Positions 41,536 to 44,727 of a stretch of DNA of 64,000 nucleotides are shown one piece after another. The stretch lies in sequence record PP892525.1; one strand, 5' to 3'. Each line of letters begins with the position of its first letter. Positions within the stretch are counted from its first letter, which is position 1. The translations under genes and the position numbers were made by a program. Under the pieces are notes generated by a model. That model was given only the letters and a program-made list of their open reading frames with translations. It had not been told where the DNA came from and ran no database searches. The stretch is from Escherichia phage vB_EcoS_I14.

Positions 41536-41617
41536 TCTCCTTTGCACGCTTTCGTGCCTTCTAAATGCAAAAAGGGGAAGGAGCATAGCCCCCTCCCCTT
41601 AGGTTTAATTTACCAGA

Positions 41618-42385
41618 TTATTCAGCAGCCGCAGCTTTTGCATCCAGTTTAGCACGCTTAGCGGCACCATCATAGTCCTTAGCAACCAGACCACGACGAG
41701 ACAGCATAGATTTAACACCGCGCTCAGACTTACCAGTTTTCTCAGCGATCTCAGCAACAGTCATGTTAACCAGATCCAGACCTTCTAACAAATCTTCACG
41801 AGTTTTAGCACTTGAAGTTTCCTGTACCGGCATAGCAGCGATACGACCTTCACGAAGCAGGCTCAGAGCTTTACCACGGATCTGCTTGATATTACGACCG
41901 AAGTGAGCAGCAATAGCTTCAATAGTAGCACCAGCAACAACCTGATTAACAAAATCAGTTTCTTCATCCGGAGTGAAGGAACGAACAGCGGCAGCTTTTT
42001 CAGTTGGTTTAACAGAAGCGGTCATTTCCAGACTCAGGATCTTACCCTGTACCTGCTTAGCACCGAACTGACCACCAGCTACAGCAGCAGCGATTTCAGC
42101 ATAGGTATACTGACCAGCATGAGCGTTCAGGAAATCAACCAGTTCAGCTTCCTGCTCGGGAGTCCACGGGGATTTCTGTACTTCGTTAGCTTTCTGTACT
42201 TCAAAACCTTCTTTACGCAGTTTAGAGCCAACAGAGCGAGCAGTAACATCTTTGCCAGTTTCAGCAGCCAGTTCAGCAGCGATAGCAGCTACTTGTTCTT
42301 GAGAGATTACAGCAACACCCAGAGCAGTGGCTTTTGCTTTCAGAGACTCGGTTACACCTTCTACGTTCCAGTTCAGTTTAGACAT
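41618..42385 (-). CDS. hypothetical protein with internal duplicated segment (possible DNA-binding protein)
   Basis: 255 aa, Ala-rich; two related segments (GKILSLEMTASVK / GKALSLLREGRIAAM). Confidence 0.4.
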   Translation of the reverse strand: MSKLNWNVEGVTESLKAKATALGVAVISQEQVAAIAAELAAETGKDVTARSVGSKLRKEGFEVQKANEVQKSPWTPEQEAELVDFLNAHAGQYTYAEIAAAVAGGQFGAKQVQGKILSLEMTASVKPTEKAAAVRSFTPDEETDFVNQVVAGATIEAIAAHFGRNIKQIRGKALSLLREGRIAAMPVQETSSAKTREDLLEGLDLVNMTVAEIAEKTGKSERGVKSMLSRRGLVAKDYDGAAKRAKLDAKAAAAE

Positions 42386-43160
42386 TATTATTTTTCTCCA
42401 ATAGTTCTTTAATCGACAGGATTTCTATCCCATTCGTTTCGGCTTTCTTATAAGATGAGGAAGAACGTTTTGATTCATCCTCACAGATTAGGTATTTGAC
42501 GTCTTTAGTAACGGATTTCTTAACCGTATACCCTAGACTTTCTAAATAGTTTGTTGCATCCGTTCTATTTGCAAAATCTTGCAAAGATCCGGTAATACAT
42601 ACCGCGATTCCATTTGGCTGGGCAACTAATTCATCTGTAATGATGATATTAGCTTTAGTGCCCCTAATACCAGTTGAAAATTTCCACGGTAGTTCGATAA
42701 CATCTTTGCCTTGTGGGGAATTTAGCCAGGCTTTATAATTTTCTCCAGCCTTGCCGTCAGCCTTCACATCGTGGAAGCTAGTGCAATTTTGGGATAATTT
42801 CTTTGCTGCAACCTCTCCAATTAGAGGGATTCCTAAAGAACCGAGAACTGAACCAAAGTCAATGTCTCCGCGAACTTTAGTATTTAATTCGCTAATTAAC
42901 TTAGCGGCAACCTTGCTACCCACGGCTCTAACCAAATCTTCTTCGGTTAGGTAAAATAGTTCTGAAATCTTCGTCAGCTCCAGCTTCTCAATAGTTTTTG
43001 GGCCAAAGCCCTTTAACTTCATTTTTGTACAGAAGTTCTCAATTAACTTACTTGATTGTGCTGGACAGTTGGACTTATTACGACAGAATAATTGTCCGTT
43101 GACAAGATCTAGCTTAGAACCACAAGAGGGACATTGTGTTGGAATTTCGATTTTCATCAA
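42378..43160 (-). CDS. NAD-dependent DNA ligase, C-terminal subunit (Zn finger + HhH)
   Basis: 260 aa; C4 zinc finger (CPSCGSKLD...CRNKSNC) and helix-hairpin-helix (IPLIGEVAAKKL, GIRG). Confidence 0.8.
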   Translation of the reverse strand: MMKIEIPTQCPSCGSKLDLVNGQLFCRNKSNCPAQSSKLIENFCTKMKLKGFGPKTIEKLELTKISELFYLTEEDLVRAVGSKVAAKLISELNTKVRGDIDFGSVLGSLGIPLIGEVAAKKLSQNCTSFHDVKADGKAGENYKAWLNSPQGKDVIELPWKFSTGIRGTKANIIITDELVAQPNGIAVCITGSLQDFANRTDATNYLESLGYTVKKSVTKDVKYLICEDESKRSSSSYKKAETNGIEILSIKELLEKNNNV

Positions 43161-43187
43161 ATTTCTTCCTTATCAATTTATATAAAT

Positions 43188-43216
43188 ATTATAGCAAGTA
43201 TTTAAGCATTTAGCAA
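43188..43216 (-). promoter_or_regulatory. early sigma70 promoter between the two ligase genes (TTGCTA-17-TATAAT)
   Basis: Reverse complement: ttgcta aatgcttaaatacttgc tataat, in the 199-bp spacer separating ligase halves. Confidence 0.6.
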
Positions 43217-43359
43217 CTACAATTTTAACTAACTTTGCTTACCCTCGCCATAACTTTCTATCCCTCAACTGAATGATAATAGTATATACCTAAGCGGCGA
43301 AAATGTCAATAACCACTTTATAATTCCGATATGGTAGATGGGTAGCAAAGGGTTATGTA

Positions 43360-44331
43360 TTAATCGTATACTCGCTCTACTATGCACGGGATTACACCAC
43401 CAGCACGAATCACTCGAATCTGGCAACCGATCTCTAGATCAAGAGAGTTAATATAATCAACGTTATTAAGAGTCGCTTTAACAATTGTAGCGTCATCAAT
43501 AATTACCGGTTCGAAATAACCAACTGGAGTTACTTTACCAGAAGCCCCTACCTGCCATTCAACTTTAGTAAGAGTTGTAATCTCGCCTTCTTCATCCTCT
43601 TTAATAGCGAATGCCCCACGAGGGAATTTATTAGTCCAGCCTTCACGGAAGAATTTGTTGTTGTCATTAATACGAACAACTTTACCGTCCGTCGGAATCC
43701 ATTTAAAGAAGGAACGCACATTAACAACTGTTAAGAAATCTTCATTCTCTAGCCAGAGCATATCTTTTAAATATGATTCTGTAATACCTACAGATTCAGC
43801 AGAACACTGGATACCGTATGCAACAAAGATTAAACCACCTTCCCCGATACGTTGTACGAAATCATCGCTATCTTTGAGGTTAATAGCGCCAGAGGCAAAG
43901 TTACGTTTATTTTCTACTTCTTTTGTAATTAGAACTTCACCAGTAATTTGAGTAGGTACTTTTTGGGAAATCTTTTTAGGGATGTTCAGCAATCTTACGT
44001 TGCTTGTGACATCATTCCCTAGAATGCCATTACCGCGAGTTAGTGCTTGAACAAATTCGCCATTAATATATAACAGAGAAATCGCACAACCATCTAACTT
44101 ATCAGTTTCTACCTGACCTAATGGGTTAAACGGAGGTTTATCCCCACGATTATAATAAACTTTCTGTAAAGAATACATACGATACAGATGTGGAATATCT
44201 CCCTTAGGCCCAATCTCTTCCTCTAGTGGGAATCTTTTAATCAGACGATCATATTCTTCGTCAGAGATTAAAGACATTCCCTGGTAATACGCTTCTTGGC
44301 AACGTTTAATAAAGTCTTTTACATTAGTCAT
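43360..44331 (-). CDS. NAD-dependent DNA ligase, N-terminal subunit (adenylation + OB domain)
   Basis: 323 aa; adenylation lysine motif KLDG (ETDKLDGCAIS) and downstream nucleotidyltransferase/OB motifs. Confidence 0.8.
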   Translation of the reverse strand: MTNVKDFIKRCQEAYYQGMSLISDEEYDRLIKRFPLEEEIGPKGDIPHLYRMYSLQKVYYNRGDKPPFNPLGQVETDKLDGCAISLLYINGEFVQALTRGNGILGNDVTSNVRLLNIPKKISQKVPTQITGEVLITKEVENKRNFASGAINLKDSDDFVQRIGEGGLIFVAYGIQCSAESVGITESYLKDMLWLENEDFLTVVNVRSFFKWIPTDGKVVRINDNNKFFREGWTNKFPRGAFAIKEDEEGEITTLTKVEWQVGASGKVTPVGYFEPVIIDDATIVKATLNNVDYINSLDLEIGCQIRVIRAGGVIPCIVERVYD

Positions 44332-44362
44332 TTATTTGTATCTCTCATTAATTTATATAAAT

Positions 44363-44391
44363 ATTATATAACAAAACTGAGTTGAAAGCAA
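44363..44391 (-). promoter_or_regulatory. early sigma70 promoter (TTGCTT-17-TATAAT)
   Basis: Reverse complement: ttgctt tcaactcagttttgtta tataat upstream of ligase N-terminal gene. Confidence 0.6.
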
Positions 44392-44401
44392 ATACATTTA
44401 T

Positions 44402-44433
44402 AAAGAAAAAGCCAAGAACTAGGCATTCTTGGC
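44402..44433 (-). terminator. rho-independent terminator (- strand)
   Basis: gccaagaa-ctaggcat-tcttggc hairpin; on - strand followed by U-run (complement of aaagaaaaa). Confidence 0.6.
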
Positions 44434-44727
44434 TTTGAGTTCTTCAGCTCGTTTCTGTACTTCATGTAAAACCTCAGATTCGCTAAGAATCTGGGTAAAC
44501 GCATAGAAAAGCTGTGATGTTGTTTCTAGGGTGTAAGGAAAAGAGAAGCCAGATTTCGTTGGAAACCATTCATCATTAATATCAAGAAGCCAGTAACGAA
44601 TACCCATGTATAGATTCCCACGAAATTCAGATACTGTTAATCTTACTTGTTCTCCCTCCTTCTCCCAGAGTATGATGGACTGGTCATCAACGTGTCCTTC
44701 ATAGTTTTGATTTACCTGTTCGCTCAT
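44419..44727 (-). CDS. hypothetical protein
   Basis: 102 aa ORF; terminator downstream. Confidence 0.45.
   Translation of the reverse strand: MSEQVNQNYEGHVDDQSIILWEKEGEQVRLTVSEFRGNLYMGIRYWLLDINDEWFPTKSGFSFPYTLETTSQLFYAFTQILSESEVLHEVQKRAEELKAKNA

Follow-up and report, generated by a model that had tools for sequence, protein, structure and literature searches.

Adjacent ligA and ligB genes of a T5-like phage encode a probable two-subunit NAD+-dependent DNA ligase

The window analysed here, a stretch of 64,000 nucleotides from Escherichia phage vB_EcoS_I14 (PP892525.1), carries a locus that we identify, with high confidence, as encoding the NAD+-dependent DNA ligase of a T5-like phage in its split (heterodimeric) form. 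The region is 96.7% identical to T5 in nucleotide sequence over 3.7 kb, which marks the phage as a close relative and not T5 itself. Because ligB carries a clear BRCT domain, the complete LigA domain set is present, divided over ligA and ligB. The domains are not gathered on a single polypeptide, as they are in the LigA family: they lie in two ORFs that are out of frame with each other across a 202-nt gap. The split ligase is real, probably functional and already known, having been annotated in T5 since about 2005 and solved on nicked DNA in a relative from Providencia phage PR1. The observation is thus correct but not new, since the T5 annotation and the solved relative precede it.

Results

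Domain content of the two subunits

The original prediction, made from the DNA sequence alone, placed two ligase ORFs on one strand of this region, and the ORF list bears this out, with both on the minus strand (Table 1). Its adenylation/OB half of 323 aa with a KLDG motif was likewise recovered. Phage LigA matches the Pfam families DNA_ligase_aden (PF01653, E=2e-23) and DNA_ligase_OB (PF03120, E=3.6e-22, aa 252-321), and the KLDG motif lies at aa 78-81, with the active-site lysine K78 aligned to K115 of E. coli LigA. Alongside this KxDG lysine, the nucleotidyltransferase motifs III, IIIa, IV and V are present, the motifs found being TRGNG, TGEV (aa 130-133), KRNFASG (aa 142-148), DGKVVR (aa 215-220) and FAIK (aa 241-244). 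One residue in motif IV counts against the assignment: phage LigA has R220 where E. coli LigA has K290, and an arginine is also found in the PR1 enzyme. The OB fold is seen in the alignment of aa 214-320 to residues 284-390 of E. coli LigA.

In E. coli LigA, the residues Y22, D32, Y35 and D36 bind NMN and confer specificity for NAD+. The alignment shows that phage LigA carries the domain Ia residues YY...SDEEYD; its aa 15-28 (YYQGMSLISDEEYD) are paired with 'YYV.ADPEISDAEYD' in the T. filiformis ligase and with 'IPDAEYDRL' in E. coli LigA, the segment's own score being weak. Nearly the whole protein, aa 4-323, matches chain A of PDB 9HU3 (E=6e-104).

Table 1. Features of the ligA-ligB region. 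Nucleotide positions are those of the window, and aa positions those of the subunit named.
Feature	Position	Strand	Description and evidence
Intrinsic terminator 5' of ligA promoter, end of PC4-like gene	44436..44408	minus	Same site annotated as terminator in phage Lindwurm
Promoter upstream of ligA	44391..44363	minus	TTGCTT-17-TATAAT; T5 annotation (L009 3008-3082) maps to window 44337-44411
ligA	44331..43360	minus	323 aa; subunit A of the NAD-dependent DNA ligase (domain Ia, adenylation, OB); ORF list, Pfam, PDB 9HU3 chain A
ligA domains (approximate)	Ia aa 1-45; nucleotidyltransferase aa 46-246; OB fold aa 247-323		
Non-coding spacer	43158..43359	minus	202 bp to ATG, 199 bp to TTG; stops in three frames, without terminator
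Distal spacer promoter (T5 P-K 28b)	43309..43281	minus	TTGACA-17-TATACT, 11/12 matches (promoter scan)
Proximal spacer promoter (T5 P-K 28a)	43216..43188	minus	TTGCTA-17-TATAAT, extended -10 TGnTATAAT
ligB	43157..42378	minus	259 aa + stop; NAD-dependent DNA ligase subunit B; ORF list, Pfam, PDB 9HU3 chain B
ligB domains (approximate)	C4 zinc finger aa 1-33; HhH aa 34-160; flexible linker aa 161-181; BRCT aa 182-259		
D5 gene (T5.118)	42385..41618	minus	DNA-binding protein; ORF list, T5 annotation
Intrinsic terminator closing the ligA-ligB-D5 unit	41600..41572	minus	13-bp stem with 8 G-C pairs, then T run

The second half had been described as a protein of 260 aa, lying 199 bp from the first and showing no evident BRCT domain. 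The two lengths hold if ligB is read from the TTG at 43160. Translation most likely begins at the ATG at 43157; this codon is preceded by the ribosome-binding site AAGGAAG, and T5 and relatives have it as their annotated start. Counted from here, the protein has 259 aa and the separation is 202 bp. The statement about the BRCT domain has to be withdrawn. Residues 184-255 of LigB score 33.3 bits with PF00533, whose cut-off is 21.3 (E=5.8e-8); the same stretch can be aligned with residues 585-666, the BRCT domain, of E. coli LigA, and it folds as a BRCT domain in the AlphaFold model. The model as a whole has a pLDDT of 83, with low confidence for aa 163-178 only, and its fold matches both 9hu3_B and 2owo_A, the latter at E=2e-7. 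The Pfam matches of LigB to ZBD and HHH_2 were weak and fell under their cut-offs; the zinc finger and the HhH domain are supported by the alignment of aa 3-122 to residues 402-529 of E. coli LigA and by the zinc-finger cysteines C9, C12, C25 and C31, which are invariant across 23 homologues. The match to chain B of 9HU3 was obtained at E=6e-81.

Position of the cut

Alignment to bacterial LigA, proposed together with the prediction as a check of the domain boundaries, places the cut in the linker that joins the OB fold to the zinc finger. Position 320 of phage LigA corresponds to residue 390 of the E. coli protein and position 3 of LigB to residue 402, the end of phage LigA being equivalent to residue 393. 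LigA stops 3 residues past the last aligned OB-fold residue, and in LigB just 2 residues precede the point where the zinc-finger alignment begins. Judged from these alignments, the cut is exactly within the short linker, and at most about 6-8 linker residues would be missing. A cut in this linker, with subunits of 323 and 259 aa, is characteristic of the split type, whose subunits have about 320 and 250-260 aa.

One could envision that the spacer is removed or bypassed to yield one polypeptide, by a self-splicing intron, a split intein, translational bypassing, or frameshifting or readthrough. Group I introns or inteins do sometimes interrupt phage genes, and gene 60 of T4 is translated by bypassing 50 nt, both of which speak for such a mechanism. 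We nevertheless give it almost no chance of being correct. Signatures of an intron or intein, which the original prediction had suggested seeking in the spacer, were not found there. An Rfam search of 42300-44500 at E<=10 returned no match in the spacer to any family, introns included, and two chance-level matches outside it; therefore, there is no intron or other known RNA in the spacer. Neither the C-terminus of LigA nor the N-terminus of LigB has surplus residues to spare for intein halves. Moreover, ligB is in the +1 frame relative to ligA, and whichever frame is read, the gap contains stop codons. The gap itself has just 202 nt, most of which is taken up by two promoters, and its variation in relatives from 37 bp to 1 kb, in some with unrelated ORFs, does not fit a conserved splicing element. 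Finally, the PR1 structure consists of two chains, one with 339 residues and one with 248.

The spacer promoters and the transcription unit

The spacer had been predicted to hold a consensus early promoter. A promoter-like site is indeed present, except that the promoter scan and the T5 annotation both give two such sites and not one. Both would be strong promoters of the sigma-70 type. The T5 annotations of P-K 28b and P-K 28a map to positions 43255-43329 and 43162-43236 of the window, respectively, and the proximal promoter is followed by a 30-nt leader that includes the ribosome-binding site of ligB (43171..43165). Overall, the scan returned 7 promoter-like sites against 8.9 expected by chance in this AT-rich region, so that the promoter call rests on score, conservation and the T5 annotation. 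With respect to conservation, the spacer has 0/202 differences from T5, against 4-5% divergence in both genes. The distal promoter is kept in Sugarlandvirus, Serratia phage Slocum and PR1. The proximal promoter is kept 5' of ligB in all eight aligned lineages (8/8), including Vibrio phages with gap ORFs, and also in distant metagenomic split lineages. Every split lineage sampled has a promoter directly 5' of ligB, including cases with a gap of 37 bp. In the latter, the ligB message would be leaderless or nearly so, because the -10 element ends 5-9 nt ahead of the ligB ATG.

The -10 element of the ligA promoter, together with the downstream 19-25 nt, is repeated at the proximal ligB promoter and forms a 25-nt direct repeat (43169-43193 and 44344-44368). 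We ruled out that this repeat is a recombination scar, because the window contains 9 copies of the motif where 0.13 would be expected, almost all of them (8/9) on the minus strand, that of the early genes; it is a shared early-promoter consensus. A spacer match to an Aeromonas phage proved irrelevant, as it concerned a promoter-like 39-mer in a tRNA region.

The ATG of D5 overlaps the ligB stop codon by 8 nt (ATGTCTAAA), and for this reason D5 and ligB are taken to be co-transcribed and probably translationally coupled. The D5 product has a Pfam match to Sigma70_r4_2 (E=1.1e-6). The terminator scan detected none between ligA and ligB; terminators flank the unit on both sides. The gene order of the region (PC4-like gene, ligA, ligB, D5, DnaB-type helicase, primase) is that of T5.

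Conservation of the split and cargo of the gap

A comparison with related phages, also called for by the prediction, showed the split at the same site in every Demerecviridae genus sampled, namely Tequintavirus, Sugarlandvirus, Priunavirus, Novosibvirus, Jesfedecavirus and Thalassavirus, as well as in unclassified Demerecviridae. At least 80% of the 2.8-kb region is carried by 428 phage records. These data bear directly on the doubt, raised with the prediction, that resequencing might reveal a continuous ORF, and more widely on the proposal that the split is a sequencing or assembly artefact, or else a gene decaying after a recent insertion, with at least one half non-functional. That the halves sum to a complete LigA domain set would accord with this proposal, as would the unsplit versions of 555-578 aa from metagenomes, of which two show the T5 gene order. 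It is effectively refuted, and we assign it a negligible probability. The same split recurs in hundreds of independently sequenced phages of several genera, and about 100 protein clusters (50% identity) consist of stand-alone proteins of ligB size. Each half has its own ribosome-binding site and ATG, and both are under purifying selection. Compared with the T5 genes, ligA has a dN/dS of 0.03 (50/972 nucleotides differ; 99% amino-acid identity) and ligB one of 0.15 (31/780; 97%). The PR1 pair, moreover, was solved as a heterodimer on DNA.

The unsplit metagenomic ligases (for example, P0149 on contig L013 and P0223 on contig L018) are 35-40% identical to both halves. They have the same compact domain set in one ORF, with a linker of 10-15 residues at the T5-type cut site. 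Two of the contigs (ligases of 557–568 aa) share the T5 order of a 234-aa gene, D3, a T5.114-like gene, a PC4-like gene, the ligase and D5; DnaB and primase follow D5 on L018 only, L013 ending inside D5. At the junction, the unsplit forms have no intergenic promoter, although promoter-like sequences lie close to it within the coding sequence. Fused and split forms are intermingled in a neighbour-joining tree built from the ligB region; because this tree is unbootstrapped and rests on 259 columns, it gives no count of split or fusion events.

In Vibrio and Proteus relatives, one or two ORFs lie within the gap. Scans against Pfam and PHROGs identified them as DprA-like (phrog_768), NADAR (PF08719) or of unknown function. 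The DprA-like gene has moved between the gap and the upstream side of ligA, given that it occupies the gap in Vibrio phages and lies 5' of ligA in Serratia phage Slocum and Proteus phage Stubb. The gap ORFs and this mobility would be in keeping with a gene broken into pieces by insertion of a homing-endonuclease gene or mobile cassette, of which the T5 spacer is a remnant. We regard such an origin as improbable. No gap ORF matches a nuclease family, and an origin from a homing endonuclease was rejected, the ORFs being DprA-like, NADAR or members of unknown families. A tblastn search with the Vibrio and Proteus gap proteins found nothing significant in the short T5-like spacers or in the whole window. 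The sole element common to all gaps is the promoter adjacent to ligB, and not an ORF. In any case, this hypothesis concerns the origin of the split only and is compatible with a two-subunit enzyme.

Discussion

The prediction of a functional two-subunit NAD ligase whose second half has its own promoter is supported by the intact ORFs, purifying selection on both, the conserved motifs, the T5 promoters and the PR1 structure. In the enzyme that we propose, subunit A, with domain Ia, the K78 nucleotidyltransferase and the OB fold, would react with NAD+, yielding the enzyme-AMP intermediate. Subunit B would supply the DNA-clamping modules (C4 zinc finger, HhH and BRCT) that single-chain LigA needs after self-adenylylation. 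Both proteins would meet around the nick, as E. coli LigA wraps its domains around nicked DNA. In line with this scheme, a LigN fragment with domain Ia, nucleotidyltransferase and OB only self-adenylates and cannot ligate (PMC1684257).

E. coli LigA (PDB 2OWO, nicked DNA-adenylate) has the same domain order of Ia, nucleotidyltransferase, OB, zinc finger, HhH and BRCT, and it shares the KxDG active site, the C4 zinc finger and the NAD+-specific domain Ia residues. It differs in being one polypeptide of 671 aa, whereas the phage enzyme consists of two and is more compact (323+259 = 582 aa), and its identity to the phage halves is about 25-30%. Closer counterparts are found among phages, since the proteins are homologous over their full length to both chains of 9HU3 and to LigA and LigB of T5. 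In T5 (GenBank AY543070, AY692264), ligA (T5.116) and ligB (T5.117) have the same order, strand and architecture, with P-K 28a and P-K 28b in a spacer that is 100% identical and the same PC4-like and D5 flanks. The architecture had been called unusual, which is true among ligases generally; it is not novel, as ligA and ligB have been annotated since the T5 genome records. A 2006 paper (PMC1684257) calls the T5 enzyme a split ligase and credits its discovery to Wang et al. (2005, Virology 332:45), and a T5 helicase paper names both ligase subunits. Our literature search found no paper reporting nick-joining by T5 LigA and LigB, and none behind PDB 9HU3 or on the promoter names K28a and K28b.

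The ligase of Providencia phage PR1 (PDB 9HU3 and 9I5I, released 2026-01-14) is a close homologue, both chains matching over their full lengths with about 54% identity. The entry 9HU3 is entitled 'PR1 phage heterodimeric DNA ligase in complex with 21-mer nicked DNA containing phage nick sequence', and alignment showed its chain B to be 100% identical to PR1 ligB. The title and chain content of this entry show that the PR1 subunits associate on nicked DNA. By analogy, the LigA and LigB pair of the present phage may be expected to seal nicks. PR1 has the same split point and a gap of about 190 bp with an annotated promoter. It differs in belonging to the genus Priunavirus, in the slightly different length of its subunits (339/248 aa in the crystal constructs), and in a terminator annotated just after ligA, where none is detectable in the window.

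From the sequence and the T5 annotation, we infer the following transcription scheme. One early promoter would drive ligA, with no stop signal for transcription after it. P-K 28b and P-K 28a would serve as two further strong early promoters, whose extra transcripts would cover only ligB and D5, and transcription of the unit would end at the terminator that follows D5. Because the spacer promoters would add these transcripts, expression of ligB and D5 could exceed that of ligA and be independent of it. Judged from the promoter layout, the dosage of LigA and LigB may be unequal.

One hypothesis for why the ligase gene is cut is that the split did not arise as a neutral accident and is instead conserved for its use in regulation, which we consider rather unlikely. 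The strong sigma-70 promoter of ligB would then drive ligB and the overlapping D5, and the Zn-HhH-BRCT subunit would be made in excess or on another schedule. If this is true, free LigB could have a role of its own, without nick sealing, in occupying the site-specific nicks of T5-type genomes; alternatively, its BRCT domain could recruit replication factors.

As a discovery, the locus adds little, given that the enzyme has been annotated for two decades, the T5 record already gives the spacer promoters their names and a structure of a homologous heterodimer on nicked DNA is available. What is added here is the constant cut site, the ever-present ligB promoter, the variable gap cargo (NADAR, DprA-like) and the unsplit forms in the same gene order, a comparative picture that is useful for asking why the split is retained. 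The architecture is nevertheless of biological interest: the phage ligase is a natural experiment indicating that LigA can function with its catalytic core on one protein and its DNA-clamping tail on another.

Results

The upstream half of the split ligase, ligA, had been described as a 323-residue adenylation/OB protein with a KLDG motif, and this description held. In Pfam, the ORF hits the adenylation domain (E=2e-23) and the OB fold (E=3.6e-22) of NAD ligases, and KLDG occupies residues 78 to 81, with K78 aligned opposite K115, the active-site lysine of E. coli LigA. Further nucleotidyltransferase motifs (TRGNG, TGEV, KRNFASG, DGKVVR and FAIK) are present, and YYQGMSLISDEEYD in the N-terminal segment was aligned to the NMN-binding helix of domain Ia. 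By its sequence, subunit A possesses all that is required for step 1, the reaction with NAD+ that yields ligase-AMP on K78.

The downstream ORF, ligB, also exists as predicted, but the 260 residues originally assigned to it were counted from a TTG one codon 5' of the ATG; from the ATG, where relatives have their annotated start and which has the ribosome-binding site AAGGAAG ahead of it, the product has 259 residues. Its proposed zinc-finger/HhH content was confirmed by the alignment of E. coli LigA residues 402–529 (zinc finger and HhH domain) with ligB residues 3–122, and none of the four zinc-finger cysteines varies among 23 homologues. The original remark that no BRCT domain is evident was incorrect: Pfam BRCT matches ligB at 33.3 bits (cut-off 21.3, E=5.8e-8), and the LigA BRCT domain (residues 585–666) aligns with ligB residues 169–253. 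An AlphaFold model (pLDDT 83), which matches structures 9hu3_B and 2owo_A, shows a zinc ribbon, a helical HhH domain and an alpha/beta BRCT fold, with a disordered linker at residues 163–178. Together, ligA and ligB comprise the complete LigA domain set, and subunit B supplies the DNA-clamping and BRCT modules.

Because ligA residue 320 corresponds to E. coli LigA residue 390 and ligB residue 3 to residue 402, the cut falls within the short linker that joins the OB fold to the zinc finger, with only a handful of its residues unaccounted for. The gap measures 202 nt to the ATG. The two genes are, as claimed, separate ORFs on the same strand: the ligB frame is +1 relative to ligA, and stops occur in all three frames of the gap. 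No Rfam family was matched in the gap, and no surplus residues that could form intein halves were found at the ligA and ligB ends. These results either rule out readthrough, frameshifting, an intron and protein splicing or make them very unlikely. Between the spacer promoters there is an 8-codon ORF (MARVSKVS, 43220–43246, minus strand) that has the ribosome-binding site GAGGGA; it is probably without meaning, since its start codon is not kept in the KpGranit and Slocum spacers.

Coordinates of the ligase genes, associated signals and comparison loci
Feature	Location	Strand	Remarks
ligA	44331..43360	minus	323 aa; upstream member of the pair
ligB	43157..42378	minus	259 aa; downstream of ligA
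P-K 28b, distal spacer promoter	43309..43281	minus (coding)	sigma-70-type, TTGACA-17-TATACT
P-K 28a, proximal spacer promoter	43216..43188	minus (coding)	sigma-70-type, TTGCTA-17-TATAAT, extended -10
Terminator	44436..44408	minus	upstream of ligA promoter
Terminator	41600..41572	minus	downstream of D5
NADAR-domain protein	L011:1692-2309		Proteus phage Stubb, in gap; PF08719, E=1.6e-31
DprA-like protein	L006:3713-4285		Vibrio phage JSF12, in gap; phrog_768
DprA-like protein	L008:3801-4361		Vibrio phage Athena, in gap; phrog_768
DprA-like gene	L005:1930-2496		Serratia phage Slocum, just upstream of ligA
62-aa ORF	L002:2825-3013		Shigella phage SSP1, adjoins ligA upstream; phrog_8267, unknown function
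90-aa ORF	L003:2833-3105		Escherichia phage HK6, adjoins ligA upstream; phrog_35018, unknown function
Short gaps	L014:765-801, L015:631-667, L016:1-87, L017:1-140		metagenomic contigs
Unsplit NAD+ ligase	L013:2151-3857		568 aa; T5-syntenic metagenomic contig
Unsplit NAD+ ligase	L018:5001-6674		557 aa; T5-syntenic metagenomic contig

The promoter predicted in the spacer proved to be two sites, both annotated in the T5 record (GenBank AY543070), which lists the genes as ligA (T5.116) and ligB (T5.117) and also places a promoter upstream of ligA. The names P-K 28a and P-K 28b go back to the collection of T5 promoters that Gentz and Bujard described in 1985. A 25-nt repeat is common to the ligA and ligB upstream regions. 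It represents the -10 and downstream consensus that the early promoters share; its motif occurs nine times in the window, where chance would give 0.13. A terminator scan found none between ligA and ligB. The ligB stop and the start of the next gene, D5, overlap by 8 nt (42378–42385, ATGTCTAAA), which suggests that the two are translationally coupled.

The 2.8-kb ligase region matched 515 phage records, nearly all T5-like Demerecviridae. Identity to T5 is 100% for the spacer taken with short flanks and 96.7% for the wider region. Differences from T5 number 50/972 in ligA, 31/780 in ligB and 0/202 in the spacer (43158–43359), where about nine would be expected at the 4–5% divergence of the genes. 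The region upstream of ligA (44332–44418) differs at 1 of 87 positions, whereas the flanking coding sequence is 4–5% divergent. Such conservation points either to promoter regions under strong constraint or to a patch of recent recombination. The proximal promoter, TTGC[T/C]...TGnTATAAT, is kept in all eight aligned lineages, including the Vibrio and Proteus phages with gap ORFs; the distal one is conserved among the enterobacterial members.

Comparison with related phages placed the split at a single site throughout those sampled: Tequintavirus, Sugarlandvirus, Slocum, Providencia phage PR1, Stubb, and Vibrio phages JSF12, 234P1 and Athena. The closest 120 ligB homologues listed from a collection of 5.8 billion proteins are all shorter than 265 residues (117 have 247–263; the remaining three are truncated), and an exhaustive representative search gave about 100 clusters of stand-alone ligB-sized proteins at 50% identity. 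The dN/dS values against T5 are 0.03 for ligA and 0.15 for ligB. Judging from these sequence comparisons together, the split is real and functional.

In some relatives the gap is a cargo slot. Besides the DprA-like protein, the Vibrio phage gaps hold small ORFs of unknown function. No recognizable nuclease was found among the gap ORFs of the Vibrio phages and Stubb, and no remnants of these ORFs were detectable in the T5-type spacer. NADAR takes its name from NAD and ADP-ribose, and its position beside an NAD+-dependent ligase may be no coincidence; to suppose something similar of the DprA-like protein is speculation. In Slocum and in Stubb the DprA-like gene is found immediately 5' of ligA. 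In some close relatives a small ORF directly abuts the 5' side of ligA; it is absent from the window (~44332).

Distant split lineages from metagenomes have gaps as short as 37 bp (L014 and L015). The short gaps hold a near-consensus TTGAYT-17-TATAAT. Because the -10 element ends 5–9 nt before the ligB ATG and no Shine-Dalgarno sequence precedes ligB in these lineages, the ligB message is suggested to be leaderless or nearly so. The representative search also recovered compact unsplit ligases of 555–578 residues. Those of contigs L013 and L018 are 35–40% identical to both halves, have a 10–15-residue linker at the T5-type cut position, and stand in the T5 gene order (234-aa gene, D3, T5.114-like, PC4-like, ligase, D5), which continues with DnaB and primase in L018; the L013 contig ends inside D5. 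TTGACA-17-CATAAT is embedded within the zinc-finger codons of L018, and TTGACG-17-TATAAT lies ~250 nt past the junction in L013; these may be internal promoters for D5. Fused and split forms are intermixed in a rough neighbour-joining tree that is too weak for event counts.

Discussion

A functional two-subunit NAD ligase, as originally proposed, is supported by the conserved split, the dN/dS values and the structure of the PR1 homologue (PDB 9HU3, 9I5I). There, a 339-aa 'DNA ligase (NAD(+))' chain and a 248-aa 'DNA ligase subunit B' chain match ligA and ligB at E=6e-104 and 6e-81, and chain B, as read from the alignment, is 100% identical to PR1 ligB. The entry, 'PR1 phage heterodimeric DNA ligase in complex with 21-mer nicked DNA containing phage nick sequence' (released 2026-01-14), has the two chains together on nicked DNA, and the window's two proteins would likewise assemble at a nick and seal it. 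Single-chain LigA enzymes can self-adenylylate without the C-terminal region but need it for overall ligation (PMC1684257 and references therein). A Haloferax LigN fragment with the Ia, adenylation and OB domains self-adenylated and did not ligate, and LigN activity could not be reconstituted from two pieces (PMC1684257). The same 2006 paper treats the T5 enzyme as a split ligase and credits its discovery to Wang et al. 2005. Since the split ligase is present in annotation, literature and a solved structure, it is already known, and as a new finding it is of low interest.

We think it improbable that the split is kept for regulation and that LigB has a separate function, for example at site-specific nicks in T5-type genomes. 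The predicted and annotated spacer promoters are consistent with the proposed independent transcription of the second half: ligA would have one promoter and ligB-D5 three, so that output of ligB and D5 could exceed that of ligA or be independent of it. D5 carries a sigma-70 region-4-like helix-turn-helix (PF08281, E=1.1e-6), and strong dedicated promoters here would be justified by its T5 annotation, a DNA-binding protein needed for replication and late transcription.
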